Below the pieces are notes generated by a model, which did no database searches, was not told the origin of the DNA, and saw only the letters and a program-made list of their open reading frames with translations. Below, one piece after another: positions 10,185 to 47,107 of a stretch of DNA of 64,000 bases (its first letter is position 1; each line of letters begins with the position of its first letter). A program made the position numbers and the translations under genes. The stretch is from Candidatus Levyibacteriota bacterium (lineage in GTDB: Bacteria; Patescibacteriota; Microgenomatia; Levybacterales; UBA12049): positions 685,140-749,139 of the forward strand of contig PLZJ01000002.1 in NCBI GenBank assembly GCA_003152105.1, given 5' to 3'.

Positions 10185-10430
10185 ATGGCACATACAAAAT
10201 CACAAGGATCAGTTAAGGGAAATCGAGATTCAATTGCAAAACGCTTAGGTGTAAAGCTTTATGGCGGTCAACAAGCAATTGCTGGTAATATTTTAGTTAG
10301 ACAAAGAGGGACTAAATTTTTCGCAGGAAAAGGAGTCGGAATGGGAAGAGATTATACGTTATTCGCATTACAAGAAGGACAAGTTAGCTTTAAACAAAAA
10401 CTAGGTAAAAAAATTGTAGAGGTAAAATAA
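10185..10430 (+). CDS. rpmA: Ribosomal protein L27
   Basis: [29 protein letters not shown] is the canonical L27, with no N-terminal propeptide. Confidence 0.9.
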
Positions 10431-11260
10431 TGGAAGAAAATCAAGACAAACTTTACGAACTTGACCCACACATGCTTCAAGCAAATCCTCTTCAACCTCG
10501 AGGAATTATTTCACCAGAATCGTTAAATGATTTAGTTGAATCAATCAGAGAACAAGGTATTCTTGAGCCGATCGTAGTAGCTAAAACTCCTGCTGGATAT
10601 CAAATTATTGCTGGAGAAAGAAGATGGAGAGCTGCAAAAATTCTCGGGTTATCAAAAGTTCCTGTAGTCGTTAAAGAAACAACTCCACAAGGCATGCTTG
10701 AAATGTCAATTGTTGAAAACGTTCAAAGAGAAGATTTAAATCCAATCGAAAGGGCACAAGCATACAAAAGATTAATAGATGAATTTGGACTTGGCACAAA
10801 CGAGGTAGCGAAACGAGTAGGAAAAAGCGCCCCAACTGTTTCAAATACAATTCGATTATTAACCCTTCCTGACGCTATTAAAGACGCGTTAGTTGCAGGA
10901 GTAATTACTGAAGGACATGTACGTCCTCTAATATCTTTAGGCGATCCTAAATTAATGCTTGAATTATTTAAGAAAATTTTACGCGATAACGCAACGGTGA
11001 GACAAACAGAAGAATGGGCTAGAAAAGCAAAATCTGAACAAGAAGGACAAAATGATAGACAACCAAAAATAAAAGAACGTTTATATATCCCTGAACAAGA
11101 TGAAATGGCGAAAACCATACAAGATTCTCATCAATTATCAAATGTCAAAATATTTCAATCCAGAAGCCTTGCGAGGATAGAATTGATTTTAAAAGGTGAT
11201 GTCGAGCACACCACTCCAAAAATTAAAGAGCTAGTAGAGTTATTAAAAGGAAACAATTAA
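10430..11260 (+). CDS. parB: ParB/Spo0J-like partition protein
   Basis: ParB N-terminal box IVVAKTPAGYQIIAGERRWRAAKILGL; HTH GTNEVAKRVGKSAPTVSNTIRLL. Start overlaps the rpmA stop (TAATG). Confidence 0.75.
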   Translation: MEENQDKLYELDPHMLQANPLQPRGIISPESLNDLVESIREQGILEPIVVAKTPAGYQIIAGERRWRAAKILGLSKVPVVVKETTPQGMLEMSIVENVQREDLNPIERAQAYKRLIDEFGLGTNEVAKRVGKSAPTVSNTIRLLTLPDAIKDALVAGVITEGHVRPLISLGDPKLMLELFKKILRDNATVRQTEEWARKAKSEQEGQNDRQPKIKERLYIPEQDEMAKTIQDSHQLSNVKIFQSRSLARIELILKGDVEHTTPKIKELVELLKGNN

Positions 11261-11314: not shown

Positions 11315-11875
11315 TTAGTTGTAGGGGTTATGAATTGTTTTTATATCTTTTGGTGGCCAGTAAACAAACATAGATTCTCCAATGACAAAGCTATCTGGTA
11401 CAAAACCCCATTCTCTTGAATCTGAACTTTCTCCTCTGTTATCTCCCATAACAAAATAATACCCTTGAGGAACAGTTTTTTCTTCGCCTTCACCTATAAA
11501 TTGACCAGCTAGCGATTTTATTTGTGGGTTTAGATATGCTGATTCATCAAGTTGTTTATCGTTTAAGTATACGTTCCCGTTTTTTACCATTATTCTATCT
11601 CCTCCCACTCCTATGACTCTTTTAATATAATCTTTGTCTGGCTCAGGTGGGGCCTTGAATACAATGACATCACCTAATTTTGGTTTTTGAAAATGTAAAA
11701 TTATAAGATTTGTGAGTACATATTCTCTATCATCAAAGTTTGGATACATGGATAAACCATTCACTTGAAATGGTCTAAACAGAAATACATAAATAACTAA
11801 AAATACTGAAGCTGCTAGTAAAAGAGTTTGTAAAGAGTCTATAAAAACTAGCCAAATTTTTGATAGTATTCCCAT
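11315..11875 (-). CDS. lepB: Signal peptidase I
   Basis: N-terminal TM, catalytic Ser box GLSMYPNF, VIGVGGDRI, GDNRGESSDSREWGFV. Confidence 0.85.
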   Translation of the reverse strand: MGILSKIWLVFIDSLQTLLLAASVFLVIYVFLFRPFQVNGLSMYPNFDDREYVLTNLIILHFQKPKLGDVIVFKAPPEPDKDYIKRVIGVGGDRIMVKNGNVYLNDKQLDESAYLNPQIKSLAGQFIGEGEEKTVPQGYYFVMGDNRGESSDSREWGFVPDSFVIGESMFVYWPPKDIKTIHNPYN

Positions 11876-11940: not shown

Positions 11941-12014
11941 GGATCTGTAGCTCAGATGGTTAGAGCGTTCGATTCACATTCGAAAGGTCAGAGGTTCGAT
12001 CCCTCTCAGGTCCA
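11941..12014 (+). tRNA. tRNA-Val (anticodon CAC), CCA not encoded
   Basis: Hand-folded cloverleaf: acceptor GGATCTG/CAGGTCC, D-arm GCTC-AGATGGTTA-GAGC, anticodon stem TTCGA/TCGAA with loop TTCACAT, T-arm AGAGG-TTCGATC-CCTCT, discriminator A. Confidence 0.75.
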
Positions 12015-12020
12015 CAACGG

Positions 12021-13811
12021 TTATTTAAAGAATTTCTTATATTTTCTACTTCTTCGAAGTGCAAAAACAAGAAGAAGAAAAATTGCAGTTGTTAATGATA
12101 GAAGTTTCCCCAGACTTCTAATAGGTGTGTCTGTAAATGATACAGTAACTTTATATAAACCTTTAGGAAGATTAAAAACTATTTTTCCTACTTCATTTTT
12201 ATTCCAATAAGAAATTGGCAATAAGTTATTATTCTCGCTAACATGCCATCCTGGGAAATATAACGTATTATCTAAGATTTTACTAGATTTTTTTGCATTA
12301 ATTACGTAAATATGATTGACTGGATTTCGAAAAACTTCTGTTATTTGTGCGTTCCCAGAAAGTACCTGTATATGATATTTTGATCTATCAAATCTAAGTG
12401 TTGAAATATGTAACCTTCTTTCTTGAGTAATTTTGAAAAGTGTTGCATTAGATTTATCAGTATATTCTGTATAAAAATCCCAAGCCTGATAATATATGTT
12501 TGGATCAAAAGGTATCATTTTTCTGTTTCCCCAATTTAACCCAGTACTGCCTATCGTAAAGATAATAATGATAATTACAATATACTTTCGATTAAAATTT
12601 GCCAAGACTATACCTGCTATTATCGAACTCAGAAAACTCATAGGAACAAGAAGTCTCCATACAAACAAGAAAGAATCAAGTATATAGATATGATCCCAAA
12701 TGGGTTTGGTAATAGATTGCATCAAAAGAAAATAAATTATGCAAAATATACTAAAAAGTACGGTGATTGCGTACTCCAATTTAGAAAAATATTTATTATT
12801 TCTCCATATCAAGAAAATTGCGGCTATAAACAAGAGCAAATGTGGATACCCAACAATTGTCCGAAGTTCTCCATTATGTCCTTGGAATAAAAAACCATAT
12901 AAAATCGGAGAGAATAAATAATCTTGTATAGGAAAAAATGCACCAGCAGGTCCAACCAAACTATACCATGTATATTTTATTTCAAAAGCTGCTGGTAACC
13001 AATAAAATGACGCAAGCAAAGCACCAATGGTAAGCATTGAAATTAGTTTTATGACAACTCTAAATACTGGTTTTTTTGTAGTCCTTAATTTTACAATGCA
13101 ATAAAAAAACAATATTGGAATTATTGATAGCATGACGCTTGGTTGAGATAAAAATATGCCTGTAAAGCTTAGGCCTCCTAAAACAAAATTAACATAGGTG
13201 TCTTTATCTATACTTCTTTTAACAAACAAGAAAAGTAATGGAATAAAAACAAAAGAAAGGACTTCGCCAACCGAAGACCTAAAATGAAGATCAATTAAAT
13301 GATAAGGTGCGAATAAATAAAAGATACCTGAAAATAGCGCGACTTTTTCATTAAACTCTTCTCGTGTATATATATACATTGTTATGCCTGAAAATATGAA
13401 CGATAGTGCAAGGAGAATTTTTATACTATTTAGATAAGAGAATCCAATAAAATGGAATATGCTTCCAATATAGTAAGGTAAAATATACTGATACATTAAT
13501 GCAGGACATCCATACCCTGCACAAAATTCGTGAGCCCACTGTGGTATTAAAATTCCTGCTTGGAAGTTCTCATAGACACTTCTAAGCAGTATAGTGTGTA
13601 GAGCTAAATCTCCAGCCTGATGTACACCAGGTCGAAATAAGTTAACTACAGCTGGTATAGAAATTACAATTATAAGATACAGAAAATTAATTTTCTTTTT
13701 TGGGTAAATATATGTATAGAACGCAAGTAATACTACTGCTATGAAAGAAAATAAAATTGGTAAAAATACAACTTTAGCAGATGTATTAAGTAATAACGTG
13801 AATAATCCCAT
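12021..13811 (-). CDS. Polytopic membrane protein, putative GT-C glycosyltransferase (YfhO / PTPS-related COG5617-like), paralogue A
   Basis: About 12 TM helices plus a C-terminal soluble domain and final TM. Conserved loop GDLALHT...ILIPQWAHEFCAGYGCPALMYQYILPYYIGSIFHFIGFSYLNSIKILLALSFIFSGITMY. Clear paralogue of 14934-16691. Confidence 0.5.
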   Translation of the reverse strand: MGLFTLLLNTSAKVVFLPILFSFIAVVLLAFYTYIYPKKKINFLYLIIVISIPAVVNLFRPGVHQAGDLALHTILLRSVYENFQAGILIPQWAHEFCAGYGCPALMYQYILPYYIGSIFHFIGFSYLNSIKILLALSFIFSGITMYIYTREEFNEKVALFSGIFYLFAPYHLIDLHFRSSVGEVLSFVFIPLLFLFVKRSIDKDTYVNFVLGGLSFTGIFLSQPSVMLSIIPILFFYCIVKLRTTKKPVFRVVIKLISMLTIGALLASFYWLPAAFEIKYTWYSLVGPAGAFFPIQDYLFSPILYGFLFQGHNGELRTIVGYPHLLLFIAAIFLIWRNNKYFSKLEYAITVLFSIFCIIYFLLMQSITKPIWDHIYILDSFLFVWRLLVPMSFLSSIIAGIVLANFNRKYIVIIIIIFTIGSTGLNWGNRKMIPFDPNIYYQAWDFYTEYTDKSNATLFKITQERRLHISTLRFDRSKYHIQVLSGNAQITEVFRNPVNHIYVINAKKSSKILDNTLYFPGWHVSENNNLLPISYWNKNEVGKIVFNLPKGLYKVTVSFTDTPIRSLGKLLSLTTAIFLLLVFALRRSRKYKKFFK

Positions 13812-13919
13812 TTATCTGCAGAGTATACAATGATTTAAAGTGTAATACAATTTTGCAAGTGAAAGCTTCTTTAGCATAGATTCTTCATAAAATTTATAGT
13901 ACTATATAGCAACTTTTAT

Positions 13920-14972
13920 ATGACTATAGTTTTCTTTTCAAGATATTTTTATCCTCACATAGGTGGCGTGGAAAAACATGTGCTAAACATAAGCAAAGAA
14001 CTAATTAAAAAAAAGCATAAAGTAATTGTTATTACAGAGAAAAGTAATTTCAAAGACAAAGAAATTGAGCAGTATAAAGATATAACAATTTATAGAATTC
14101 CAATAACTACTTCTGAAAAAAGAAAAAAATTTTTAATATGGAAATGGTTATTGCTACACAGAAGTATTATTAGCGATTCAGATATTGTACATGCACATGA
14201 CGTATTTTATTGGTATCTACCATTTAAAATGATATATCCAAGCAAAAAAGTATATATGACAATTCATGGTTATGAGGGTAATAAAATGCCCACCAGAAAA
14301 TCTAAAATTTCTCATAAAATTAATGCAATTCTTTCTTCTGGAAACATTAGTATAGGTTCATTCTTGGAAAAATGGTATGGCATAAAAGCAACATATATTT
14401 CTTATGGTGCGGTAGCAGTACAAGATAAGAAGCCTATCATTTCTTATCCTAAAAAAGGAGTAATAAAAGCATTATTTATTGGAAGATTAGAACCTGAGAC
14501 CGGAATTATGGAATACTTAAAGTTTATCGATTTAATGAGAAAAGATAATATTTCAATTACTATTATTATTGCAGGAGATGGATCATTACGAAATGAAGCA
14601 ATAGAATATGTTAAGGTAAAAAAAATAAAAGCAACATTTTTAGGATTTGTAAATGATCCACAAAAATATTTTAGTAAGGTTGATATTGTGTTTACTTCAC
14701 GATATCTTGGTATATTAGAGTCACTGCTTGGAAAAAAAAGGGTATATGCTTTTTATAATAATGCAATTAAAAAAGATTATCTGCAAATGTCATCGTTTTC
14801 TCAATTTATAAATATCGCCAAATCTATAAAACAAATGAGGTTGTTGCTTTTAAACGATAAAGCAAATGAAAATCTCTATAAAGCATCTATAAATCAAGGA
14901 TATGCATTTGCTTTAGAACAATCATGGCAAAAGTTAACGCTTCTTTATATAAAACTTTGGGGAAAGAAATAA
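13920..14972 (+). CDS. Glycosyltransferase family 4 (GT-B, group 1)
   Basis: N-terminus TIVFFSRYFYPHIGGVEKHVLNISKEL, typical of GT4; 350 aa. Confidence 0.65.
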   Translation: MTIVFFSRYFYPHIGGVEKHVLNISKELIKKKHKVIVITEKSNFKDKEIEQYKDITIYRIPITTSEKRKKFLIWKWLLLHRSIISDSDIVHAHDVFYWYLPFKMIYPSKKVYMTIHGYEGNKMPTRKSKISHKINAILSSGNISIGSFLEKWYGIKATYISYGAVAVQDKKPIISYPKKGVIKALFIGRLEPETGIMEYLKFIDLMRKDNISITIIIAGDGSLRNEAIEYVKVKKIKATFLGFVNDPQKYFSKVDIVFTSRYLGILESLLGKKRVYAFYNNAIKKDYLQMSSFSQFINIAKSIKQMRLLLLNDKANENLYKASINQGYAFALEQSWQKLTLLYIKLWGKK

Positions 14973-16691
14973 ATAGGTATAAAATACAAAAAATAACAAT
15001 ACCGCAATCATACATGTGATGCTAATTATTTGAGAATCTGTTCTGATAAACGTTTGATTATACTCAATACTTACAAGATATAAACCTGCTGGCGCATTAA
15101 AGAATATAATTCCGGGATTCCTATTATTTTGATAACTAATTGGAATTGGTTTGCTATTTATTAGTACTTCCCAATTGGGAAAATAGAGAGTATTTTCTTC
15201 GATATATAAAGGAGTAGCTGCGTTTACTATATACTCATGAATTGTTGAAGTTCGATTTATTTGTTTGATCGTAGCGATACCCTTTAATATATAAAGAGGC
15301 ATTTTAGGGATGTTTTTTTTCCAAACGTTTTTTTGATCAACCCACTTGGGTGCTGATTGAATGTTTCCTTCGCCTTGTATGGTACTAAGTGGAATATTAG
15401 CTCGAAGTGTAGTATCAGTTATTGCTCCAATTGTTCTTCTGTTTCCCCAATTAAATATTGTAATGAGTATGGTAATAACACAAAGAATTACAATAAATGA
15501 TTTGTTTTTATTAACTTTGACTACTATTCCTGCAATTAACGAAGTACAAAGTGTAATTCCTGCTAAGAATCTGTAGGAAAATTGAATATGTTTGAATAAT
15601 GGAAGAATACTATAAATTGGCTGTGAAATAGGGAGCATCATGACAAAAAGTACAAAAAATGAGAGTATCGCAAACAGGTATAAGAGATTTGTTTTTTTGA
15701 TTTTACCTTTAACTAAAAGATATAGTGAATATAAAACAATAAATAATTGAGTATAACCAATAATATAAGAAAGTTGTCCCTTTGGTCCTTGAAATAATAG
15801 TCCATACTTCCAGTTCGAATAAATAAATTCCCAAAAGTTTTGATATGAAACACTAACTACGTTTGATTTTAATGTGAATTGCAATTCATAGAGTAGCGGT
15901 AACCAGTAAAATAATGATAAAAGCAAACCAATTGTTAATGAGAAAAATGCATATGTTAAATATTTTCCATCTCTCTTTTTAGAATATATAAATAATTCAT
16001 ATAGTATCAGTATAGGAAAAACTATTATTGAAACAGCTTGATGAGATAAAATAAGTGCTGCCACTGAGCATGATAAAAATAAGAGATGAATAATACTAGT
16101 TTTTATAGATAATTTTTTCAAAAAATAAAAAACGAAGGGAGATATAGAAAGTGCGGTAACCTCTCCAATATCAACTCTAAAATGCATGTCGACTAAATGA
16201 TAAGGAGCGTACATATAGAATAGAGAGGATGCTATTCCAGACATTTCTCCTAACTCTTCTTTAATCCACAAATACATTCCTATACCAGAGAATATAAAAG
16301 TCATGGCAAGAAGTAGCTTAATGCTTGTAATAAAAGAAAATCCGATCAAATGAAAAAAACTAATCAAATAAAATGGTAAGGGGTATGAAAAATTAAAAAC
16401 TGGATAGCCATATGTAGCATTTAGTAAACCACCCCAAAGTGGAAATATATGTCCTTCTAAAAGTGAAGAATAGAAACTCATTGCCTCATAAACATGCAAA
16501 GAAAGATCTCCACTTTCATATGTTCCAGATCTAAATAAACTTGTAAGTGGCAACAATGATATTACTATCACATAAACTAAAGGATGTATTTTTTTATTTG
16601 GGAGTAATTTTTTAAAAAGAAGGAATCCACTTGCAAGAATAATGACTGAAATGCAACTTACGATAATTAACTTAGTTGATGCTGGAATCAT
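14934..16691 (-). CDS. Polytopic membrane protein, putative GT-C glycosyltransferase (YfhO / COG5617-like), paralogue B
   Basis: GDLSLHVYEAMSFYSSLLEGHIFPLWGGLLNATYGYPVFNFSYPLPFYLISFFHLIGFSFITSIKLLLAMTFIFSGIGMY aligns residue-for-residue with 12021-13811. Same C-terminal architecture. Confidence 0.5.
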   Translation of the reverse strand: MIPASTKLIIVSCISVIILASGFLLFKKLLPNKKIHPLVYVIVISLLPLTSLFRSGTYESGDLSLHVYEAMSFYSSLLEGHIFPLWGGLLNATYGYPVFNFSYPLPFYLISFFHLIGFSFITSIKLLLAMTFIFSGIGMYLWIKEELGEMSGIASSLFYMYAPYHLVDMHFRVDIGEVTALSISPFVFYFLKKLSIKTSIIHLLFLSCSVAALILSHQAVSIIVFPILILYELFIYSKKRDGKYLTYAFFSLTIGLLLSLFYWLPLLYELQFTLKSNVVSVSYQNFWEFIYSNWKYGLLFQGPKGQLSYIIGYTQLFIVLYSLYLLVKGKIKKTNLLYLFAILSFFVLFVMMLPISQPIYSILPLFKHIQFSYRFLAGITLCTSLIAGIVVKVNKNKSFIVILCVITILITIFNWGNRRTIGAITDTTLRANIPLSTIQGEGNIQSAPKWVDQKNVWKKNIPKMPLYILKGIATIKQINRTSTIHEYIVNAATPLYIEENTLYFPNWEVLINSKPIPISYQNNRNPGIIFFNAPAGLYLVSIEYNQTFIRTDSQIISITCMIAVLLFFVFYTYLFLSPKFYIKKR

Positions 16692-16717: not shown

Positions 16718-17626
16718 ATGAAAACATCATTTATCGCTACAATTTTTAATGAAGAAAATAATATTAAAGATTTAATAACATCACTTTTAAATCAAACTAA
16801 AAAAATTGATGAAATAATATTTGTTGATAATAATTCTACTGATAAAACGAGAGAGATTATTAAATCTTATAAAAATATTAAGTTACTGAAATATAGTGGA
16901 AATAGATCAAAAGGAAGAAATTTCGGAATTGAGCATGCAAGTGGAGATATAATTTTAGTATCCGATTCAGGATGCATTTTAGATAAGAATTGGGTAAAAA
17001 ACATAACGAGTGGATTTAAAAATGAAGATATTTCAGTAGTATCGGGTTATTATTTGCCGATTTGTAACAGTATTTTTCAAAAATGTCTAGCAACATATAC
17101 CTGTGTTATGCCAGATAAGTTAAATGAGAATACCTATCTTCCATCATCTCGATCCATAGCATTTAAAAAAAGTGCATGGAAAACAATTGGTGGATATCCC
17201 AAAAACCTCTCAACATGTGAAGATTTAATTTTTGCGGTAAGGTTAAAGAAGCATAACTTTCACTTCATTTTAGTAAAAGACGCATTAGTATATTGGCAAC
17301 AAAGGAAAAACTTACTTTCGGCATTTTCACAATTTTTCTCGTATGCAAAGGGAGACGGTAAGGCCAGATATGTAAGAGCTCAAACGCCATATTTATATTT
17401 ACGATATATTGTCGCAGTATTATTGTTTTATTTTTCGTTTAAAGAGCATTTTCTCACTCTATTTATTGTTTTAGGATCACTATATTTTTTTTGGGCAATA
17501 TATAAAAATTATGTCTATATAAAATCTCTATATGCAATTATATATTTACCTTTGCTGCAGTTAACATCAGATATTGCTGTATTGGCAGGGATGACAGTTG
17601 GACTTTTCTTGTCATTTACTAATTAA
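16718..17626 (+). CDS. GT2 glycosyltransferase with C-terminal TM helices (GtrB/ArnC/DPM-synthase-like polyprenyl-phosphate sugar synthase)
   Basis: IATIFNEENNIKDLITSLLNQTKKIDEIIFVDNNSTDKTREI is a GT2 N-terminus. The last roughly 80 aa form 2-3 hydrophobic helices. Confidence 0.65.
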   Translation: MKTSFIATIFNEENNIKDLITSLLNQTKKIDEIIFVDNNSTDKTREIIKSYKNIKLLKYSGNRSKGRNFGIEHASGDIILVSDSGCILDKNWVKNITSGFKNEDISVVSGYYLPICNSIFQKCLATYTCVMPDKLNENTYLPSSRSIAFKKSAWKTIGGYPKNLSTCEDLIFAVRLKKHNFHFILVKDALVYWQQRKNLLSAFSQFFSYAKGDGKARYVRAQTPYLYLRYIVAVLLFYFSFKEHFLTLFIVLGSLYFFWAIYKNYVYIKSLYAIIYLPLLQLTSDIAVLAGMTVGLFLSFTN

Positions 17627-18648: not shown

Positions 18649-19887
18649 CTAAGCATTTGATCTAAATATAGTATAGGTGATGTAGAGAGTATATGTTTGA
18701 GAAATTATATATGAAATGAGTACTGCATACGCAACACCATTAAGATTAAATAATTTTGAAAATGGAAATAATAATATAATCAGCAGTAAGAAATTTATAG
18801 AATCTGTTATGGTCAGTACTTTTGGTTTGCCTAGAGCTAATAAAAAGGGAGCAAATGGACCCATTAGTGATCTAAAGCAACCATAAACTGCTAATATTTG
18901 AAGAATTGGTGCAGCATTTAACCATTTATTACCCAGTACGACTACAATTATTTCTTTTGGAAAGGCTATGAAAATAAAACTTAAAATAATGGTCGGAATA
19001 GATATAAATAGAATATGCTGTTTTAGAGAATTTTTCATTAATAATTTATCATTTTGTATATGTGCATATATTGGGAATGCAATTTTTGAAATATTATCAG
19101 TAATTTCTGAGAATGCTATATTGCCAATCTTAAATGACATATCATAAATTCCAAGGACTCCTGTATTAAAAAACTTTCCAATAAATAGATTGTCAATCTG
19201 AGTCATTAAATAGGAAGAAATTCCTCCTATTGTTAACCATTTACTAAAACCGAGTAGTTTCTTAACTAAACTAAATGAGATTGGATGTGAAAAATCTGAT
19301 TTTATTACTACGTATGATAATAAAGTTTGAAAAATCGTTCCTATGAGAAGACCAAAGACAAGAGATAAGGCGTTGCGATATATAAGAGCAAGCAAGATCG
19401 TAAAAAATGCTGTTATAAAACTTGATATAAATTGATAAAGAAATTCGTTTTTGAATTGAAACTTTTTATAGAAATAGAGTAAATAGGGATTTTGAATGCT
19501 ATTAATAAGAGGAATAAAAGAAGCAATCAAAAGTAAATTAAACAAAACAGGATTGTTAAAAAATGAAGCTAAGAATTTAGCAATTACAATATTAATTAAT
19601 GTTAAGCATACTCCACGGACAAAATTTATAGAAAGTATAGTTTTTGCATATGGATGAAGTTCTTCTTGAAAATGGATAATAGCGTATTCAAGTCCAGTTT
19701 CTGATATAGCTTCTAATAAATTTATTATACTAGTTACGATTGCGAATAGCCCGAAATCTGATTGTGTTAGAATTCTTGCTAAAATTATAATTCTAATAAA
19801 ATCTAATCCTCTAGAACTAAATTGTAAAATTCCCATCCAACTAGTACCCTCAATAAATCTTTTTTTAACATTAATTTTATTTGCCAT
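18649..19887 (-). CDS. Wzx-type oligosaccharide flippase (polysaccharide biosynthesis protein, MOP superfamily)
   Basis: 412 aa, about 12 TM. Start GTSWMGILQFSSRGLDFIRIIILARIL is typical of the Polysacc_synt/Wzx family. Confidence 0.6.
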   Translation of the reverse strand: MANKINVKKRFIEGTSWMGILQFSSRGLDFIRIIILARILTQSDFGLFAIVTSIINLLEAISETGLEYAIIHFQEELHPYAKTILSINFVRGVCLTLINIVIAKFLASFFNNPVLFNLLLIASFIPLINSIQNPYLLYFYKKFQFKNEFLYQFISSFITAFFTILLALIYRNALSLVFGLLIGTIFQTLLSYVVIKSDFSHPISFSLVKKLLGFSKWLTIGGISSYLMTQIDNLFIGKFFNTGVLGIYDMSFKIGNIAFSEITDNISKIAFPIYAHIQNDKLLMKNSLKQHILFISIPTIILSFIFIAFPKEIIVVVLGNKWLNAAPILQILAVYGCFRSLMGPFAPFLLALGKPKVLTITDSINFLLLIILLFPFSKLFNLNGVAYAVLISYIISQTYTLYITYTIFRSNA

Positions 19888-21045: not shown

Positions 21046-23281
21046 AGAAATTTCAATTATTTACATCTATTACAATACTCCTACTGAAATTAAAAATTCA
21101 CTTGCTTCAATTAAAAATGCAATTGGAAATATAACATATGAAATAATAATTATTGATAATCATTCAAGTGAATTTCTTAAAAATAACAACAAAAACATCC
21201 GTATTATTAGAAATAAATCAAATAAAGGATTTGGAAGAGCAATAAATCAGGCAGGAAAACTAGCTAAGGGCAACTTTTTATTATTAATTAATCCAGATAC
21301 GCTATTTCACAAAAATAGCATATTCTACTTATATCAAAAAATTAAAAACGACGAAAACATTGGAGCAATTGGCCCCATGCAAGTGTCTTTAGATAATAGC
21401 ATGTTACCAAGCATTAATGGATATCCAACTATACTAAAATCAATATTTTCATTTTCTATTCTTAACATACTTTTTAAAAACAATTCCTTTTCGAGAGCAT
21501 ATTGGTTACCAGGTGTACAAGGAACTAAACAACTTGTCGTACCTGTTATTGGTGGGGCATGCATGCTGATTCCCAAAAAGATTTTTAATCAAGTAAATGG
21601 CTTTGATGAAAAGTTTTTTATGTATTTTGAAGAATCAGATTTGTGTAAACGAATTAATCAGTTGGGCTATAAAATTATATATTATCCTAAAGCTAAAATT
21701 ACTCATCTTGTTGGAATGAGTAATAAAGATAAAACAAGTATTGAATCTATCTTTGAAAAAAGTAGGTATTATTACTTGAAAAAAAATTATGGAAATACAA
21801 AAGCTCTGCTAGCCGAAGGATTTATTAGATCTACGAAATCTAACAATATATTACTTGTTCTAATTTTACTTATTTCCTTATTTTTAAATTTATATAAAAT
21901 TTCAACTCAACTGATGTTTTTTGGGGATTTTGGCAGAGATTATTTAGTGGCTAGAGATATGGTTATTAACCATACTATACCATTAATTGGTATTGAATCA
22001 TCTGTTAAGTGGTTACATCAAGGTCCTCTTTCTATTTATTTTATTGCCTTATCTTTTCTGATCGGTAATTTTTCACCAATTGCTCCCGCGATTTTTTATG
22101 GAATAGTTGGCAGTTTGACAACTCTGTTGGTTTATATTCTAGGTAAAAATTTATGCAATAGTAAAGTTGGTTTACTGGCAAGCTTATTTTATGCAACTTC
22201 TCCTTTGATTACCGTAAGTATGAGAATGCCATATCATACTTCTTCAATACCATTTTTTGCATGCCTCTTCTTTATTTCCATGTTTAAAGTCATAAAAGGT
22301 AGCTATAAAGTATTACCAATTGCAAGTTTTTTACTTGGAATCTTATTCTTATTAGAATTATCTAATGGTGTACTTTTTTTACTATTTCTTATATATATTT
22401 ATTGGTATAAATTACGATTCCCTAAAAATATAATAAATAAATCTATTTTTACTTTTATACTTGGAATTTCTCCTTTTATCTTGTATGACCTTATGCATCA
22501 TTTTATTCAAATAGGCGGTTTTATATTATGGGTTATTAACAGAACGCGATTATTCTTCGGTTTAACTACAAACGGCAACGAAACAACATTACATGCAGGA
22601 AGCGCTATACTTACCATATGGCAAGAACTTAATAGGATATTCTTTCCTATAAATCATATCTTGGCAGATGTTTTACTTTTATCAATAATTTTTATTGTCT
22701 TTAAATTAAGGAAAGAGATTTTATTTAAAAAAGATACAATTATCATACCTATTATTTGGCTATTTGTTCCTCTAACTGCCTATGTTATTCATTCTGCTCC
22801 AGGAACCGCATATTTTCCTTTATTATTTCCTTCTATATCTTTACTACTTGGATATTCAATCTATTATTATTCCAAAATCAGTAAAATAGTGATACTATTT
22901 TTTATTACAATTTGTCTTATAAATGGAGTGTATACAATTTACAACCATTATTTTTTAGATTCTTCTTCATTTATTGGCTCTAATGCTCCTGGTTGGAATT
23001 ATGGTATGGGTATTTCAATTGATGAACAAGAAATAATTGCCAATAAAGTTGTAACGGATGCAGATCACAATGCCTTTCAATTCACTGGAGGCAAGGATGT
23101 GGCAACTTTTCCTTCAGACTTAGATAATTATAAATATTTAATAATATATCATCATGGTTTACTTAATAATAACGCAAAATTAACATATACTTTGTACAGA
23201 GCCTCTACAAAAATTAAAACCAATCAACATATAATATTTAAAACTAAATTTTACACCTTAACAAAATATGAAAGAACTTAA
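21035..23281 (+). CDS. Fusion protein: N-terminal GT2 (rhamnosyltransferase-like GT-A) + C-terminal ArnT/PMT_2-like GT-C membrane domain
   Basis: Residues 1-260: ISIIYIYYNTP...IIIIDNHS...GGACMLIPKK...FMYFEESDLCKR, GT2 with ED motif. Residues about 270-748: about 12 TM, FGDFGRDYLVARDM...WLHQGPLSIYF, equivalent to the ArnT DE..Y...KPPL.YW loop. Confidence 0.6.
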   Translation: MKNKEISIIYIYYNTPTEIKNSLASIKNAIGNITYEIIIIDNHSSEFLKNNNKNIRIIRNKSNKGFGRAINQAGKLAKGNFLLLINPDTLFHKNSIFYLYQKIKNDENIGAIGPMQVSLDNSMLPSINGYPTILKSIFSFSILNILFKNNSFSRAYWLPGVQGTKQLVVPVIGGACMLIPKKIFNQVNGFDEKFFMYFEESDLCKRINQLGYKIIYYPKAKITHLVGMSNKDKTSIESIFEKSRYYYLKKNYGNTKALLAEGFIRSTKSNNILLVLILLISLFLNLYKISTQLMFFGDFGRDYLVARDMVINHTIPLIGIESSVKWLHQGPLSIYFIALSFLIGNFSPIAPAIFYGIVGSLTTLLVYILGKNLCNSKVGLLASLFYATSPLITVSMRMPYHTSSIPFFACLFFISMFKVIKGSYKVLPIASFLLGILFLLELSNGVLFLLFLIYIYWYKLRFPKNIINKSIFTFILGISPFILYDLMHHFIQIGGFILWVINRTRLFFGLTTNGNETTLHAGSAILTIWQELNRIFFPINHILADVLLLSIIFIVFKLRKEILFKKDTIIIPIIWLFVPLTAYVIHSAPGTAYFPLLFPSISLLLGYSIYYYSKISKIVILFFITICLINGVYTIYNHYFLDSSSFIGSNAPGWNYGMGISIDEQEIIANKVVTDADHNAFQFTGGKDVATFPSDLDNYKYLIIYHHGLLNNNAKLTYTLYRASTKIKTNQHIIFKTKFYTLTKYERT

Positions 23282-25844
23282 AATTTTTATTGGCATTTTA
23301 TTACTTATAATTATTTTATCTTTTTCTTTGCCAGGTATTTTTCTACCCACAGATATATTAAATAATTATCCAAGTTTTAGCACAACAAAATGGGATAAGC
23401 CCCAAAATTCACTTCTTTCTGATGCAGTATTTCAGTTTGAACCATGGCGTGTATATACAAAATCGCAATTACAAAACGGCACATTTCCTTTATGGAACAA
23501 TTTAAACGGATCCGGTACACCGTTTTTCGCAAATATGATTTCAGCAATCTTATTTCCTTTAAATTTTATTTATTATATTTTGCCCACCGCGCCTTCGTTA
23601 TATTTAATCAGTTTTTTGAAGCTGTATTTTCTTGGACTTTTTAGTTATTTATATTTTAAAAAAGTGCTGAAGAAAGAAAAGTTTGCATTTATGGGAGCAG
23701 TTGCTGTGTCGTTCTCTGGATTTCCTATTCTTTGGTTATTATGGCCTCAAACTAATGTATACATGTTCTTCCCTTTGTTGCTATATATCACCGAAGAAAT
23801 AAGAGAACAACCGAAAAAATATTATAAATGGTATTTATTTCTATCAATAGTATATTTTTTAGCTGTACTTGGTGGACATCCAGAAACACTTTTTGATATT
23901 TTACTGCTACATGTGTCCTACTTACTTTTTAGGTTATGGAATCAAAAAAAACAATTATTTATTTCGATCGGTTTTGTATTTTTAGGAATTATTACTTCTG
24001 CTATTCAAATACTTCCATTTATTGAATATATTTTACATAGCGATATAGTGCAGCAACGAGGATTACAGACTTATACATATTATTTACCTTTAAAAAGCAT
24101 AATAATGCAAATTTTTCCATTTATACTTGGAGCTCCACAACTTAATTTTTATAAACCAATTGCTTCGTTTACTAATTTTCAAGAGGTAATGAGTGGCTAT
24201 GTTGGTGCAATAGTATTAATCTCTGCGATCTATGTTACACGTAAGTATTTTTCAGATAATTTAGTTAAATACTGGACTATTATGATAATACTAATATATG
24301 GAATTGCATATAATATTTATCCATTTAAAATGCTTTCTTATTTGCCTATATTACATAGTAATGCAAACCAACGATTAACAGGATTTGCATCAATTGGATT
24401 TATATTCTTAGCATGTTATGGATTTTCTAAAGTTGATAAAAACAAGATAAATATTCCATTTTCTTTCCAAAAATTATTTTACTTGATCTCAATAGTTGTT
24501 AGTTTACTATTGGTATTTTTACCGAAATATTTTCCAAAACATATAATAGGAAATAGTACCAATATTGCATTTGTATACTTTTTGCAAAATCATATTGCAT
24601 ATATTTTCTTAACAACATTTTTATTTTTACAATTAGTTCTATTTACTAGAAATAAATATATAGTTAAATACAAATTTGAATTAGTTATATTATTAATTTT
24701 ATCTCAGACTTTGTTTCTACTTTGGAATTATAATCCAATTACTGCTAAGAGTGTATATTATCCAAGAACGCCTTTAACTCAGGAGTTGCAACAAATACCA
24801 AGTGGTAAAGTTATTGAAATCGGAAATCCTTCCTTGGCTCCAGATAGCAATTTAGCATATGGAATATCAGGAGCAGAGAGCTATGATGCAATTGACGTTA
24901 AATCATATAAGACGACTTTAAATGCATATTTTCCAATTAGAAACATATGGGATAAAGTAGATGAAACAAATATAAATGCTTTCCAAAAGTTAGGTATTAA
25001 ATATATCTTGAGTGATTTTGATATAAATTTGAAAAGACAAATCTATCAAGGTAGAAGCGATACTATTTTACCTCCTCTTAGTCATTCTAGGCCAGCTTCG
25101 TATTCAGTTATAAATAGTATTCATACATTAAGCGGTATACGGGTGCTTTTTGCCACATTTAATAGATCGAATAATTGTATTGTTACTATTACATTTAAAG
25201 ATGATAAAACTTCACAAACACTACTTCAAAAAAATATTTATTGTTCAAATACTAGAAACTACATGTACTATTTTGTATCAACAAATAATATTACTTTAAA
25301 TCATGATAACTTGAGAATTGTTCTTCAATCTAATAGTGATAATACTCAAAATAATGTAGCGCTTGTTGGAGATAAAGGTGGTTACCCTTATATCGAGTTA
25401 TTTTCTCCTCCATCTAAGCAGGTGTACAAAAAGTTGTGGGAACTAAATGATGAATATATATGGTCAGTGCCAGATGCTAATTTTATAGTATTTGATGGAA
25501 AAAATATTTTGAAACGAGAAAGTTCTAATACCATTCAGATTGCAACTAACTATAACCATAATGCATCGATAACTGCAAAAGTAGTTAACTATCCAGGTTG
25601 GAAAGTTAGTATAGATGGAAAGACCGGTTTAGTAAATAAAAATGACTTATTTCTGTCTACAGAAGTTCCAAAAGGAAAACATGTAATACTATTTTATTAT
25701 GCTCCAATGTCATTCTACATTGGACTAATAGTTACAATAGTAATTTTGGTAAGTATTGGATTTTACATATTAGTTAGAGAAACTTACAGTATTAAAATCC
25801 TATGTTATAATCTCATAAGAACTTTCCAAAAAAAACGAAAATAA
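23268..25844 (+). CDS. YfhO-family polytopic membrane protein (putative GT-C glycosyltransferase)
   Basis: 858 aa. About 14 TM, then a roughly 300 aa extracytoplasmic domain and a final TM. FPLWNNLNGSGTPFFANMISAILFPLNFIYYIL matches the YfhO loop motif, and the architecture matches B. subtilis YfhO (about 860 aa). Confidence 0.5.
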   Translation: MKELKIFIGILLLIIILSFSLPGIFLPTDILNNYPSFSTTKWDKPQNSLLSDAVFQFEPWRVYTKSQLQNGTFPLWNNLNGSGTPFFANMISAILFPLNFIYYILPTAPSLYLISFLKLYFLGLFSYLYFKKVLKKEKFAFMGAVAVSFSGFPILWLLWPQTNVYMFFPLLLYITEEIREQPKKYYKWYLFLSIVYFLAVLGGHPETLFDILLLHVSYLLFRLWNQKKQLFISIGFVFLGIITSAIQILPFIEYILHSDIVQQRGLQTYTYYLPLKSIIMQIFPFILGAPQLNFYKPIASFTNFQEVMSGYVGAIVLISAIYVTRKYFSDNLVKYWTIMIILIYGIAYNIYPFKMLSYLPILHSNANQRLTGFASIGFIFLACYGFSKVDKNKINIPFSFQKLFYLISIVVSLLLVFLPKYFPKHIIGNSTNIAFVYFLQNHIAYIFLTTFLFLQLVLFTRNKYIVKYKFELVILLILSQTLFLLWNYNPITAKSVYYPRTPLTQELQQIPSGKVIEIGNPSLAPDSNLAYGISGAESYDAIDVKSYKTTLNAYFPIRNIWDKVDETNINAFQKLGIKYILSDFDINLKRQIYQGRSDTILPPLSHSRPASYSVINSIHTLSGIRVLFATFNRSNNCIVTITFKDDKTSQTLLQKNIYCSNTRNYMYYFVSTNNITLNHDNLRIVLQSNSDNTQNNVALVGDKGGYPYIELFSPPSKQVYKKLWELNDEYIWSVPDANFIVFDGKNILKRESSNTIQIATNYNHNASITAKVVNYPGWKVSIDGKTGLVNKNDLFLSTEVPKGKHVILFYYAPMSFYIGLIVTIVILVSIGFYILVRETYSIKILCYNLIRTFQKKRK

Positions 25845-29384: not shown

Positions 29385-30158
29385 CTAACGTATAAGTAAT
29401 AATAGCCACGATTTGGGAGTATGGAATAGTCTGTTGTTAAGCAATGCTAGACAAAACCAGGGAGTATAAGAAAAGATTGATTGAAACAACTTAAAATTAG
29501 TTTTACCGTGCTGTCTATCTTTCCAAATTGTTGGGATTTCATATATTTTATATTCTAAGCAGTGGGCTTTAGCAACAATTTCTAACGTAACGCTAAAGCT
29601 AGACACGCTTTTTAATGAAATATTATGTATTAATTCTGAAGAATACATCTTATAGCTATTTGTCGGATCACTAGTATTAATTCCAGTAAATAATTGTAAT
29701 AATCTTCCTGCAAGTTTTGGGAATCCAACTTTTAAAGGTGCATTCAATTCTTGTTTTCCTCCTTTTGAATATCTTGAAGGACAGACTACGTCTGCTGTTT
29801 TAGGAATTAAATTAAGCATTTCTTTAATTTGCGTCAAATCATCACATAGATCAGCCATTGTCACAAGTATTTTAGAGCCTGAGGAGTATTTAAAACCTGT
29901 CCGTATTGCTCCAGATGGGCCTCTATGAATCGAGTTTTTTAAAATTACCAGTTGTGGATATATGCGTTTTAGATTTTTTAATACAGGTAATGTTGTATCG
30001 TTATCCAAATCATAAATAACAAGAATTTGATTTTTAACAGTAATATTTTTATCTAATAACCTAAGGGTTTCTTCTATATTTGCAGCTTCATTATATACGG
30101 GTATAATAACTGATAAGTCATATTTTGAATTTTTAGTAGTTTTCTGTATTTTCTTCAT
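29385..30158 (-). CDS. GT2 glycosyltransferase (Dpm1/polyprenyl-phosphate sugar synthase-like)
   Basis: DLSVIIPVYNEAANIEETLRLL, DLDNDTT and a hydrophobic C-terminal tail. Confidence 0.65.
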   Translation of the reverse strand: MKKIQKTTKNSKYDLSVIIPVYNEAANIEETLRLLDKNITVKNQILVIYDLDNDTTLPVLKNLKRIYPQLVILKNSIHRGPSGAIRTGFKYSSGSKILVTMADLCDDLTQIKEMLNLIPKTADVVCPSRYSKGGKQELNAPLKVGFPKLAGRLLQLFTGINTSDPTNSYKMYSSELIHNISLKSVSSFSVTLEIVAKAHCLEYKIYEIPTIWKDRQHGKTNFKLFQSIFSYTPWFCLALLNNRLFHTPKSWLLLLIR

Positions 30159-34937: not shown

Positions 34938-35924
34938 ATGATTTCTTATCCAATAGTTGTAACCACAATATTTCCTCCTTCAAAGGCTATTAAGCTATAC
35001 GTTAAGTACAAACATAAATTAATCGTTATCGGAGATAGTAAAACCCCGTCTAACTGGAAATATAAGAATTGTGATTATTATCCAATAGCTTCTCAACATA
35101 AAATGTTTCCTACATTTTCGAAAATAATTCCATTAAATCACTATGCAAGAAAAAATTTAGGATATTTAATTGCAATGAAGGCATGTAGTAGTTTTATTGA
35201 AACTGATGATGATACATTTCCGTATGATCATTTTCCTAAGTTAATTAATGGAAAAACTATAACTTTGATTAAATCAAAGGAATTATTTTTTAATGCTTAT
35301 AAATATGCAACTTTTGGAAAAACAACTGTTTGGCAAAGGGGATATCCATTGCAACTGATATTAAATAAATCCAATTTTCTTGAAAAAAGCTTGTTATCAA
35401 ATAATTATGAATTTCCGATTCAACAGGGATTAATAAACGGAGACACAGATGTTGATGCAATATATAGATTAGTAAACAATGAAAAAATAACTTTTAAAAG
35501 TAATTGTAATTTTTCAATTGATTCAGGAGTGTATTCTCCAATAAATTCACAGAATACTTTTTGGAAAAGAAATGCCTTCTTATTTATGTATCTGCCTAGT
35601 TTTGTTTCACCACGAGTCACGGACATTTATAGAGGATATATTGCACAAAGAATGTTAAAAGAAATAAATGAATACGTTTCTTTTACTGCACCCTCTACTT
35701 ATCAAATAAGAAATCCGCATAATTATATTAAAGATTTTAAAGACGAAATGGATTTATATCTTTCAATTGAGGAATTTGTAACTTGTTTAGACAAAATGAA
35801 ACTTAATGGATCGATTGAAAATAAATATTTAATGCTATTTAAGCAGTTAAACAAATATGGTTTTATCATTCAGGATGAAATAGATGCAGTTTCTCATTGG
35901 ATTAAGGAAGTTTCTAAGCTTTAA
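34938..35924 (+). CDS. Hypothetical protein, possible GT-A glycosyltransferase (DUF288/STELLO-like)
   Basis: IVVTTIFPPS...LIVIGDSKTP... then ETDDDTF, a DxD-like motif. Soluble, 328 aa. Family assignment from memory only. Confidence 0.3.
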   Translation: MISYPIVVTTIFPPSKAIKLYVKYKHKLIVIGDSKTPSNWKYKNCDYYPIASQHKMFPTFSKIIPLNHYARKNLGYLIAMKACSSFIETDDDTFPYDHFPKLINGKTITLIKSKELFFNAYKYATFGKTTVWQRGYPLQLILNKSNFLEKSLLSNNYEFPIQQGLINGDTDVDAIYRLVNNEKITFKSNCNFSIDSGVYSPINSQNTFWKRNAFLFMYLPSFVSPRVTDIYRGYIAQRMLKEINEYVSFTAPSTYQIRNPHNYIKDFKDEMDLYLSIEEFVTCLDKMKLNGSIENKYLMLFKQLNKYGFIIQDEIDAVSHWIKEVSKL

Positions 35925-36636
35925 CTGGGTAAGTAGATTTATCTAGAATTTCACGAACAAAAGTTTTTAAATTTAAATATCCAGTAGGTATAGATTTAAA
36001 ATTCGTATCTCCAAATAGTCGTTTTCCTTCAATGGAAGGAAATTCATAAAATTTCAATTTATATTTCAATCCTCTTATGACCATTTGGCAATCTATAGTT
36101 CTATCTTCTGTATCAAGATGTAATTTGTCATATGCTAGAATGTTAATTCCCCGAAATCCTTGTACTATTTCTGAAACATATCCGTTTTTATTCCATAAAG
36201 CATTAATGATAATCGCAAAACAAATATTAAACCATTTTCGAGGTTTTAAAAAGGTATCGTCTTCTTCATTCTGACCACCTTTAATCATTCGAGAAGGAAT
36301 TACGAATTCATACCCTAACCGTAATGCATCTGCAATTTTACCAATATCTTCTGGGTTTTCATTACCGTCAGGATGATAAAGTATCATGGCATTTGTGGAG
36401 CAATGTGATCTTGCTTCAAAAACTGCAGCACCTAAGCCACGTTTTTTTTGTGTAAATACCTTGATTCCCTTTTTTTTGTAAAATTCGATTGTTCCATCTG
36501 TAGAATTTCCATCAATTACATATACCTCGTCAACAGATTTTAATGGAATTTTGGGAAACAAAATTTCTGATGCTTTTCTTTCATTCATTGCTAGTATTGC
36601 TAAGCTCACTTTTATTTTTTTTGTAGGTAATTTCAT
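35914..36636 (-). CDS. GT2 glycosyltransferase (Dpm1-like)
   Basis: SLAILAMNERKASEILFPKIPLKSVDEVYVIDGNSTDGT. Confidence 0.65.
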   Translation of the reverse strand: MKLPTKKIKVSLAILAMNERKASEILFPKIPLKSVDEVYVIDGNSTDGTIEFYKKKGIKVFTQKKRGLGAAVFEARSHCSTNAMILYHPDGNENPEDIGKIADALRLGYEFVIPSRMIKGGQNEEDDTFLKPRKWFNICFAIIINALWNKNGYVSEIVQGFRGINILAYDKLHLDTEDRTIDCQMVIRGLKYKLKFYEFPSIEGKRLFGDTNFKSIPTGYLNLKTFVREILDKSTYPVKA

Positions 36637-47035: not shown

Positions 47036-47036
47036 G

Positions 47037-47107
47037 AGCCGATAAGCAGAATCGAACTGCTATTTAAGCTTTACGAAAGCCTTGTTCTACCATTTAACTA
47101 TATCGGC
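47037..47107 (-). tRNA. tRNA-Thr (anticodon CGU), CCA not encoded
   Basis: Reverse complement folds as acceptor GCCGATA/TATCGGC, anticodon stem AGGCT/AGCTT with loop TTCGTAA, T-arm AGCAG-TTCGATT-CTGCT, discriminator T. Confidence 0.7.

Follow-up and report, generated by a model that had tools for sequence, protein, structure and literature searches.

What do two related membrane-protein genes, separated by a single glycosyltransferase gene, contribute to the envelope of a Levybacteria-type bacterium, and how did they come to lie side by side? The window analysed here comprises 64,000 nucleotides of a Candidatus Levyibacteriota contig (PLZJ01000002.1, assembly GCA_003152105.1, positions 685,140 to 749,139 of the forward strand). 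The envelope biology of Patescibacteria is almost unknown, and three results described below offer concrete hypotheses for it. The PF10131 family, to which both proteins belong, shares its whole architecture with the YfhO enzymes; in Levybacteria-type genomes, it is found in a fixed three-glycosyltransferase module near core housekeeping genes; and it is split into two long-lived subtypes that differ at predicted outer-loop residues.

Two full-length members of the PF10131 family

Protein A (12021..13811, minus strand; 596 aa) and protein B (14934..16691, minus strand; 585 aa) are encoded on one strand; about 1.1 kb separates their genes, and only a GT4 gene intervenes. A sequence-only reading had proposed that they are paralogous GT-C-like membrane proteins that align over roughly their first 150 residues. 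The peptides quoted in its favour are present in the translations of A and B, and the relationship extends considerably further. In a pairwise BLASTP comparison, 556 columns align with 36% identity and 55% positives (E 4e-102), and the alignment includes the family-invariant polar and aromatic residues. The two proteins are thus paralogues along their full length, rather than being similar only in their N-terminal 150 residues or in generic hydrophobic segments.

Both proteins score above the PF10131 gathering threshold of 26.4 bits (A 29.0 bits, B 59.4 bits; profile positions approximately 5-305 of 621), which bears out their assignment as GT-C-type membrane glycosyltransferases and places them in COG5617/PTPS_related. 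A PF10131 match is also precomputed for nearly all of their homologues. This family comprises 5,436 clusters (50% identity, E <= 1e-30) and is listed as 'function unknown' within the GT-C clan (PMC7801869); our literature searches found no functional study of PF10131, PTPS_related or COG5617. A and B are further members of a large, known and unstudied enzyme family, from which nothing sets them apart, and because this family is without an assigned function, membership gives them neither a donor nor an acceptor. No NCBIfam model matched A, B or the YfhO-like protein discussed below, and the clusters that contain distant relatives and fusion proteins bore no informative names.

Fold comparison of an AF2 model of B identifies the membrane core as a GT-C fold. 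The model contains about 13 core helices, a beta-sandwich (residues 466-544) and a terminal helix (548-575), and the architecture previously read from the sequence, that is, a transmembrane core, a soluble domain and a last transmembrane helix, accordingly holds for B. No chain in the PDB matched B or the family profile at the sequence level, even at E 10. Invariant positions in the family (B numbering) include W86, K125, R374, N414-W415-x-x-R418 and W507, and all 14 family-invariant residues are kept in both A and B. D62 of B, equivalent to D68 of A, is 98% conserved across the family. GT-C glycosyltransferases in general carry a conserved acidic residue, as DxD or a modified form of it, in an extracytoplasmic loop early in the core. 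The residue in A and B, a single Asp (not a DxD), is part of the sequence R-x-G-x-Y-x-S-G-D directly after the second helix; it marks the start of the first loop past helix 2 and is followed by the P-x-W...G-x-P loop. [quoted passage not shown]

Kinship with the YfhO family

The same P-x-W...G-x-P loop had been noticed in a YfhO-family GT-C protein elsewhere in the window (23268..25844, plus strand; 858 aa), which scores 33 bits against PF09586 (cut-off 28.5) and whose homologues are named YfhO family. Does this recurrence reflect common descent? Compared pairwise by BLASTP, A and B show only a marginal match to the YfhO-like protein (E 0.14-0.4), and profiles are needed to show the relationship. 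When the two families were compared by hhalign, their membrane cores matched over 349 columns (E 7e-24, probability 99.6%), with the FPLW and GxP loops aligned inside the match and D62 of B paired with D29, a near-invariant position in the YfhO-like family. The C-terminal 160 residues, which comprise the beta-sandwich and the last helix, matched as well (E 1.3e-15, probability 98.6%). The common loop is thus homologous, as had been suspected, and, given both matches, it reflects homology of the whole architecture. Judging from these profile comparisons, PF10131 is a sister of the YfhO family, with homologous core and C-terminal domain. The YfhO-like protein consists of the A/B core and C-terminal domain plus a middle insert of ~270 residues; A and B are without this region and 250-300 residues shorter. 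The PF09586 model itself matched neither A nor B at E <= 0.01. Weak precomputed PF09586 matches are present in a few A/B homologues.

Across the YfhO family (PF09586: B. subtilis and S. aureus YfhO, Listeria YfhO, and streptococcal PgtC2, PgfM1 and PgfM2), the core is homologous to that of A and B, including the Asp at the loop start, as are the (Y/F)PGW motif in the C-terminal beta-sandwich and the terminal membrane helix. Solved enzymes of the GT-C_A type (AglB/STT3/PglB, PMT, ArnT and AftD) show only 7-13% sequence identity and differ in their soluble domains, and no sequence match to them was detectable even with the family profile. Further membrane proteins of the island that lack annotation (26862, 38686, 42046 and others) were compared as single sequences with both profiles by hhalign, which gave nothing informative; the best matches were 36702 and 40000 (E ~5e-5 to 8e-5, probability 60-68%).

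An old pair of subtypes

Adjacent paralogues make it tempting to invoke a recent local duplication, and this had indeed been the sequence-only reading of the locus. Here, the data point the other way. A and B are 33-36% identical to one another, whereas each is 40-48% identical to proteins of other Levybacteria-type genomes; compared between genomes, A shows 40-46% and B 37-43% identity, whereas pairs within one genome show 32-40%. In an NJ tree, A and the copies at six other loci form one clade (59 of 60 bootstraps); five of these loci, in five genomes, also carry a second, B-like copy alongside. Together, the identity pattern and the A clade with its paired loci imply that the duplication is older than the divergence of these genomes. 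By these measures, A and B diverged long ago and have been retained as a pair in several related uncultured bacteria; neither is a recent local copy of the other. The partner clade on the B side is poorly resolved (15 of 60 bootstraps), and we therefore claim only the subtype signature, not orthology, as common to the window's B and those partners.

Could the pair nevertheless have arisen by a recent duplication in the source genome, followed by fast divergence towards a new specificity? The close spacing on one strand, with a single intervening gene, would fit such a history, and more similar tandem pairs elsewhere (57% identity within the pair at locus L002, 48% at L013) indicate that duplication recurs in the family. 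Set against the low mutual identity of A and B, the well-supported A clade with its B-like neighbours and the occurrence of common subtype signatures across genomes, however, this scenario is highly improbable. A corollary is that adjacent paralogues need not imply recent local duplication.

The two subtypes are distinguished by residues in predicted outer loops. A belongs to a 'Cys-pair' subtype (loop IPQWAHEFCAGYGCP) and B to an 'N-A-T' subtype (loop FPLWGGLLNATYGYP), with the outer-loop residues LCGxYGCP versus LNATYGYP and FQGHxGExR versus W(R/K)YGLLFQGPKGELS. A Cys-pair copy is paired with an N-A-T copy in the window and in seven other loci. The consistency of these differences suggests that the subtypes may have different donor or acceptor specificities or may catalyse successive steps, the latter possibility being reminiscent of PgfM1 and PgfM2 of Streptococcus mutans. 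Copy number in relatives, to which the sequence-only reading had also drawn attention, is informative in this regard: 67 of 81 related loci contain a single copy within 10 kb, and the second enzyme is thus not required for the core function. B occupies the canonical slot, and A is an extra copy of a different subtype.

A conserved three-glycosyltransferase module

Gene neighbourhoods were counted in the 81 related loci, with an orthologue considered linked when found within 10 kb. The gene between A and B encodes a cytoplasmic, PglH/PimA-like GT4 of the GT-B fold (13920..14972, plus strand; Pfam Glyco_transf_4 and Glycos_transf_1). It is divergent from A at a distance of 108 bp, and the last 39 bp at its 3' end are shared with the 3' end of B. 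The best solved matches of its family profile are WlaC/PglH (6eji, 8.8e-10) and PimA (~1e-7). A GT4 orthologue is present in 72 of the 81 loci, more than for any other neighbour of the GT-C gene, and is convergent at less than 100 bp from the GT-C 3' end in 32 of them. On the other side, a GT2 of the GT-A fold with C-terminal membrane helices (16718..17626, plus strand; PF00535, E 7.7e-26; hydrophobic segments 231-300) is divergent from B across a 26-bp spacer; its orthologue is linked in 57 loci and is divergent within 150 bp in 27.

To the left, the flank begins with a tRNA-Val(CAC) gene (11941..12015, plus strand; ARAGORN), 5 bp away from A's stop codon. Of 28 related loci scanned, 22 have this tRNA gene next to signal peptidase I, and it constitutes a conserved left boundary of the glycan locus. 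Signal peptidase I (11315..11875, minus strand; PF10502, 3.3e-48) and ParB (10430-11260) serve as synteny anchors and are linked in 57 and 55 of the 81 loci, respectively. The B slot is thereby defined by a divergent GT2 upstream and a convergent, overlapping GT4 downstream, followed by tRNA-Val, signal peptidase and ParB; A is located between GT4 and tRNA-Val. Divergent GT2, GT-C and convergent GT4, beside these three housekeeping genes, form a conserved module.

How does this arrangement compare with known systems? As in the case of PgfM1 and PgfM2, two paralogous GT-C proteins are encoded in one locus with a GT-A enzyme. The partner GT2 at 16718, however, is not CsbB- or GtrB-like by sequence, and no GtrA/GtcA-type flippase was seen. 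Multi-component transmembrane glycosylation systems of the CsbB/GtcA/YfhO or GtrABC type combine a membrane-linked GT-A enzyme producing the C55-P-sugar, a flippase of the GtrA type or, in some systems, of the Wzx type, and a GT-C enzyme that passes the sugar to a surface polymer or protein; the candidates for the first two parts are described below. The mycobacterial PIM/LM pathway combines the GT4 PimA and the GT2 Ppm1 with GT-C mannosyltransferases, and PpgS/Rv3779 is a further point of comparison. The linkage of a PimA-like GT4, a membrane GT2 and a GT-C protein resembles this pathway at the level of enzyme class, not of orthology, and serves as a lead only; the window's locus provides no evidence of phosphatidylinositol or mannose.

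A proposed role in extracytoplasmic sugar transfer

How might A and B act? We consider it reasonably probable that they are anciently diverged PF10131 (PTPS_related, COG5617) GT-C membrane glycosyltransferases of a Levybacteria-type (Patescibacteria/CPR) host, belonging to a sister family of YfhO and working in the manner outlined here. Their most likely function would be extracytoplasmic sugar transfer from polyprenyl-phosphate-linked donors, with specificities that differ between A and B. We envision a scenario, modelled on characterised GT-C enzymes and on YfhO systems, whereby a polyprenyl-phosphate-linked sugar is made on the cytoplasmic face by the linked GT2 and/or by DPMS-like GT2s and is then flipped outward, possibly by the Wzx-type protein. 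On the outer face, A and B would each pass the sugar on to a surface acceptor, with glycopolymers, glycolipids and Ser/Thr-rich stretches of proteins all conceivable, and the beta-sandwich may help to bind that acceptor; the subtypes would divide donor or acceptor specificities, or successive steps, between them. Precedents are found in multi-component transmembrane glycosylation systems (PMC8035078) and in the YfhO-family proteins PgtC2, PgfM1 and PgfM2, which act on Ser/Thr-rich regions (bioRxiv 10.1101/2024.05.05.592596).

Alternatively, A and B may be the two halves of an obligate heterodimer rather than independent enzymes. Solved GT-C enzymes include heterodimers (Pmt1-Pmt2, 6p2r; EmbA-EmbB, 7bvf), a Cys-pair copy accompanies an N-A-T copy both in the window and at seven further loci, and distant relatives harbour two complete modules in one polypeptide (P0380, 1093 aa, represented by three near-identical sequences from different sources; P0404, 1116 aa). 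The predominance of single-copy loci, however, implies that in most genomes the enzyme does its work with no paralogue at its side, and because all invariant residues are kept in both A and B, neither looks like a non-catalytic subunit; an obligate heterodimer is thus unlikely. The two proteins might also be involved in moving a short lipid-linked oligosaccharide en bloc, the GT-C protein then being an oligosaccharyltransferase or ligase instead of adding single sugars: the GT2 would attach the first sugar to polyprenyl phosphate, further sugars would be added by the PglH/PimA-like GT4, and the product would cross the membrane by way of the Wzx-type protein. We regard this order of events as distinctly unlikely. 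That a GT-C fold here has no glycosyltransferase activity at all, and serves as a scaffold like PIG-U or as a transporter, is barely credible in view of the near-invariant Asp in the predicted first outer loop and the many invariant charged residues, the tight linkage to GT2 and GT4 genes, and the homology to YfhO enzymes with genetic evidence of transferase function.

Proceeding from the preferred reading of A and B as sugar transferases on the outer face, one might ask whether the GT2/PF10131 GT-C/GT4 triad represents the core pathway of a lineage-wide envelope glycoconjugate, for example a PIM/LM-like lipoglycan or secreted-protein glycosylation, with the Cys-pair and N-A-T enzymes either forming a heterodimer or necessarily acting one after the other. 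This extension is doubtful; if true, it would for the first time place a GT-C family of more than 5,000 sequence clusters in a functional context.

Candidates for donor synthesis and export

Which enzyme might supply the lipid-linked donor? The GT2 at 16718 is a candidate. In favour of this role are its linkage to the GT-C family (57 of 81 loci), its C-terminal membrane helices and the fusion of an orthologue to a PMT_2 GT-C: over its full length, it shares 54% identity with the N-terminal portion of GT2-PMT_2 fusion proteins (854 aa) from other genomes. Against it count its nearest solved relatives, which are of the TarS type (3.7e-17) rather than DPMS (3e-8), GtrB (1.7e-5) or ArnC, and the presence in the island of two clearer DPMS/GtrB/AglJ-type GT2s. 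A single-sequence AF2 model of the GT2 at 16718 was unusable (pLDDT 42).

Of these two, the DPMS/GtrB/ArnC-type GT2 at 29385..30158 (minus strand; 257 aa) is, by sequence, the island's clearest candidate for a polyprenyl-phosphate sugar synthase, with matches to DPMS (5mlz, 3.2e-18), GtrB (5ekp, 4.8e-10) and ArnC (7e-6) in the PDB and to PgfS, Dol-P hexose transferase, ArnC and PpgS in NCBIfam. An AglJ/Dol-P hexose transferase-like GT2 at 35914..36636 (minus strand; 240 aa; NCBIfam TIGR04182 AglJ 5.2e-21, Dol-P hexose transferase 2.8e-9) is a second lipid-sugar synthase candidate. Neither is a conserved neighbour of the GT-C gene, the former being linked to the family in 6 of 81 loci. No small flippase of the GtrA type was recognised among the scanned ORFs. 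The Wzx-type (Polysacc_synt_3) flippase candidate (18649..19887, minus strand; PF13440, E 2.9e-62) has an orthologue within 10 kb in 32-40 of the 81 loci.

Two paralogues of one GT-C family

The proteins encoded at 12021-13811 (minus strand, 596 aa; A) and 14934-16691 (minus strand, 585 aa; B) align in BLASTP over 556 columns with 36% identity (E 4e-102). The relatedness that a sequence-only reading of the locus had seen in their N-terminal parts thus extends well past the first 150 residues, over the full length, and lies far above chance. Nor is it confined to generic hydrophobic segments: an alignment of 210 family members contains 14 invariant columns and about 55 further columns with 90% conservation or more, polar and aromatic residues being frequent among them (R54, D62, W86, K125, H165, H170, R172, E177, R374, N414, W415, R418 and W507; B numbering here and below), and every invariant residue is kept in both A and B. 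Named homologues come nearly all from Candidatus Levybacteria or other Microgenomates/Patescibacteria, and a 1.14-Mb metagenomic scaffold (ENA ERZ28653421, WOOD18-1 scaffold_5) encodes a protein identical to B. The G+C content of the window is about 28%.

Both proteins exceed the gathering cut-off (26.4 bits) of PF10131 (PTPS_related), A with 29 and B with 59 bits, and match PMT_2 more weakly (A 27.3 bits, just over the cut-off of 26.1; B 17.8 bits, under it). PF10131 is a member of the GT-C clan, of unknown function (PMC7801869). NCBIfam holds no model matching A or B, and PDB sequences gave no match to B or to the family profile. Fold comparison of an AF2 model of B with solved GT-C enzymes gave scores of 20.8 for AglB, 19.7 for STT3B, 19.0 for Pmt4, 18.8 for ArnT, 18.7 for AftD, 18.6 for AftA, 18.4 for ALG12 and 15.6 for PglB, with the same outcome in Foldseek; the GT-C assignment proposed earlier therefore holds for both family and fold. 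In the model, an N-terminal helix, a Lys-rich loop and a second helix are predicted to precede an R-x-G-x-Y-x-S-G-D motif and a loop with a helix and a P-x-W...G-x-P segment; the remaining helical core reaches about residue 410, and a beta-sandwich (466-544) and a last membrane helix (548-575) follow, matching the proposed order of core helices, soluble domain and terminal helix.

The same reading had noted that the loop recurs in the 858-aa protein at 23268, a YfhO-family member (PF09586, 33 bits) whose homologues bear that name. By pairwise BLASTP its similarity to B is marginal (E 0.14), and the highest-scoring stretch coincides precisely with the FPLW loop. A 90-sequence A/B profile nevertheless matches a 45-sequence profile of the YfhO-like family over 349 columns (probability 99.6%, E 7e-24), pairing the loop-start Asp (D62 with D29), the P-x-W motif and the G-x-P motif. 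The C-terminal 160 residues alone also match (probability 98.6%, E 1.3e-15), aligning ENTxYFPGW with YYPGW as well as the terminal helix. Because both core and C terminus match, the recurrent loop is homologous and one visible part of a homology of the whole architecture. The YfhO-like protein contains about 270 additional residues in its middle part.

An old duplication with distinct subtypes

The two proteins had been taken for a local duplication, a timing that proved wrong. A and B share only 33-36% identity, whereas their best homologues in other genomes reach 43-47% (A) and 44-48% (B). Between genomes, A is 40-46% identical to A-type copies and B 37-43% to B-type copies; cross-type identities are 29-39%, and partners inside one genome share 32-40%. 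In a neighbour-joining tree, A and copies from six other loci form a clade in 59 of 60 bootstraps, and five of the A-clade loci (L012, L016, L017, L019, L026) hold a second copy placed elsewhere in the tree.

The subtypes differ in the loop residues beside the conserved Asp (D62 in B, D68 in A) and in the FQG loop. A-type loops carry P-x-W-A-x-x-L-C-G-x-Y-G-C-P, with two cysteines, and FQGHxGExR; B-type loops carry L-N-A-T-Y-G-Y-P and W(R/K)YGLLFQGPKGELS. The Cys pair and N-A-T occur together in the window and seven other loci (L019 has N-A-G). At residues 89-97, the conserved N-A-T is an N-glycosylation-type sequon lying where A-type proteins have the Cys-x(4)-Cys pair; 42 of 95 related proteins have N-A-T at that position.

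Taken together, the tree, the identity pattern, the subtype signatures and the pairing across loci lead us to conclude that the duplication is old and that the pair has been retained. Retention of two copies is the less common state: when one genome from each species was scanned (377 relatives; 80 loci fetched, 81 related loci analysed), the copy-number check suggested earlier found one copy within 10 kb in 67 of 81 loci and two in 13. An apparent pair in L007 was rejected as a single frameshifted gene. Other genomes have separate, younger duplications, such as the L002 pair (57% identity).

A conserved module within a glycan locus

Between A and B lies a GT4 gene (13920-14972, plus strand), divergent from A and overlapping B by 39 bp at their 3' ends; a GT2 gene whose product has C-terminal hydrophobic segments (16718-17626, plus strand) diverges from B across a 26-bp spacer. 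Orthologues of these and other window genes recur within 10 kb in the 81 loci: GT4 in 72, GT2 in 57, signal peptidase I in 57, ParB in 55 and a Wzx-type flippase in 32-40. In 32 loci GT4 converges on the GT-C gene to within 100 bp of its 3' end, mostly overlapping it; in 27, GT2 diverges from the GT-C gene no more than 150 bp from its 5' end; and in 14 both arrangements coincide. tRNA-Val(CAC) adjoins signal peptidase I in 22 of 28 loci scanned, a conserved boundary. The neighbours of B are exactly canonical, and A occupies the gap between GT4 and tRNA-Val, an interval whose gene content differs among genomes.

The region from 12 to 46 kb is a glycan locus with further GT2, GT4, PMT_2-type, Wzy_C, methyltransferase and sugar-nucleotide genes, flanked by housekeeping genes. 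It spans about 34 kb and is bounded by tRNA-Val(CAC) (11941-12015, plus strand) and tRNA-Thr(CGT) (47036-47107, minus strand). Large polytopic membrane proteins are unusually numerous at 12000-46300, some with GT-C-type Pfam matches (21035, 23268, 43589 and 36702, the PMT_2 match of the last falling just under the cut-off at 25.6 versus 26.1 bits) and others without (26862, 38686, 40000, 42046). The locus also encodes a Wzy_C protein (45133), a STELLO-like protein (34938) and a sugar C-methyltransferase (30155) with an orthologue near the GT-C gene in 30 of 81 loci. To its right, a GGDEF-domain protein and a MurT-type ligase (56530-57309 and 61114-62394, both minus strand) sit among housekeeping genes (ATP synthase, DnaE, GatAB); MurT is typical of Gram-positive-type peptidoglycan amidation.

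Which enzyme might supply the donor? The GT2 at 16718 had been named the natural lipid-sugar supplier and is a plausible candidate for that role. In about 15 related loci (L047:5541-8105, minus; L004:3680-6205, minus; L077:12726-15290, plus; and about 12 more), its orthologue makes up the N-terminal third of a fusion protein of 840-855 aa, with 54% identity over the full length, membrane helices included. Since the remainder of the fusion is a PMT_2-type GT-C domain, this type of GT2 is arguably coupled functionally to a GT-C enzyme. In the window it stands alone, and a different GT2-PMT_2 fusion lies at 21035-23281. The family profile of the GT2 at 16718, on the other hand, finds its nearest relatives in TarS (3.7e-17) and the chondroitin and heparosan synthases; matches to DPMS (3e-8), GtrB (1.7e-5) and ArnC (1e-3) are weaker. 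Two short GT2s look like true polyprenyl-phosphate sugar synthases of the DPMS/GtrB/ArnC/AglJ type and, judged by sequence, are better candidate makers of lipid-linked donors: 29385-30158 (minus strand; DPMS, PDB 5mlz, 3.2e-18; GtrB 4.8e-10; NCBIfam PgfS, Dol-P hexose transferase, ArnC and PpgS) and 35914-36636 (minus strand; AglJ 5e-21). Elsewhere they are seldom near the GT-C family (6 and 1 of 81 loci, respectively). The GT4 family is nearest to PglH (WlaC, 8.8e-10) and PimA (about 1e-7), two enzymes whose lipid-linked acceptors lie at the inner membrane face.

Possible roles of the pair

A and B are paralogues that have been kept as a pair, and the GT-C family to which they belong is known but uncharacterised. 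In characterised GT-C systems, C55-P-sugar made by a membrane GT-A enzyme is carried outward by a flippase, and the GT-C enzyme then adds the sugar to LTA, WTA, polysaccharide or protein (PMC8035078); Ser/Thr-rich regions are the targets of the YfhO-family proteins PgtC2, PgfM1 and PgfM2 (bioRxiv 10.1101/2024.05.05.592596). By analogy with these systems, A and B most likely use a polyprenyl-phosphate-linked donor and pass its sugar to an outer-face acceptor. We envision that D62/D68 would serve as a catalytic or donor-binding acid and that the beta-sandwich might aid acceptor binding. Because the subtype differences sit beside this Asp and in the FQG loop, they would fit different donor or acceptor specificities, or successive steps.

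Alternatively, A and B might form an obligate heterodimer, an unlikely arrangement that is favoured somewhat by putative natural fusions of two modules. Some distant relatives carry at least two complete modules in tandem on one chain, as putative fusions (P0380, 1093 aa, found three times in different sources; P0404, 1116 aa; P0414, 1670 aa; P0375, 3329 aa). Less probable still, in our view, is that the GT2 and GT4 assemble a short oligosaccharide that is then transferred en bloc, and a non-catalytic role is very improbable. Sugar transfer by A and B remains our preferred reading, and the value of the pair lies mainly in the access it gives to envelope glycosylation in Patescibacteria.

Many TPA_asm MAG records among the related loci (L003-L082) are titled 'uncultured Gammaproteobacteria bacterium', yet have Levybacteria-type gene order and 40-47% identical proteins; the titles are apparently placeholders or taxonomic misassignments.
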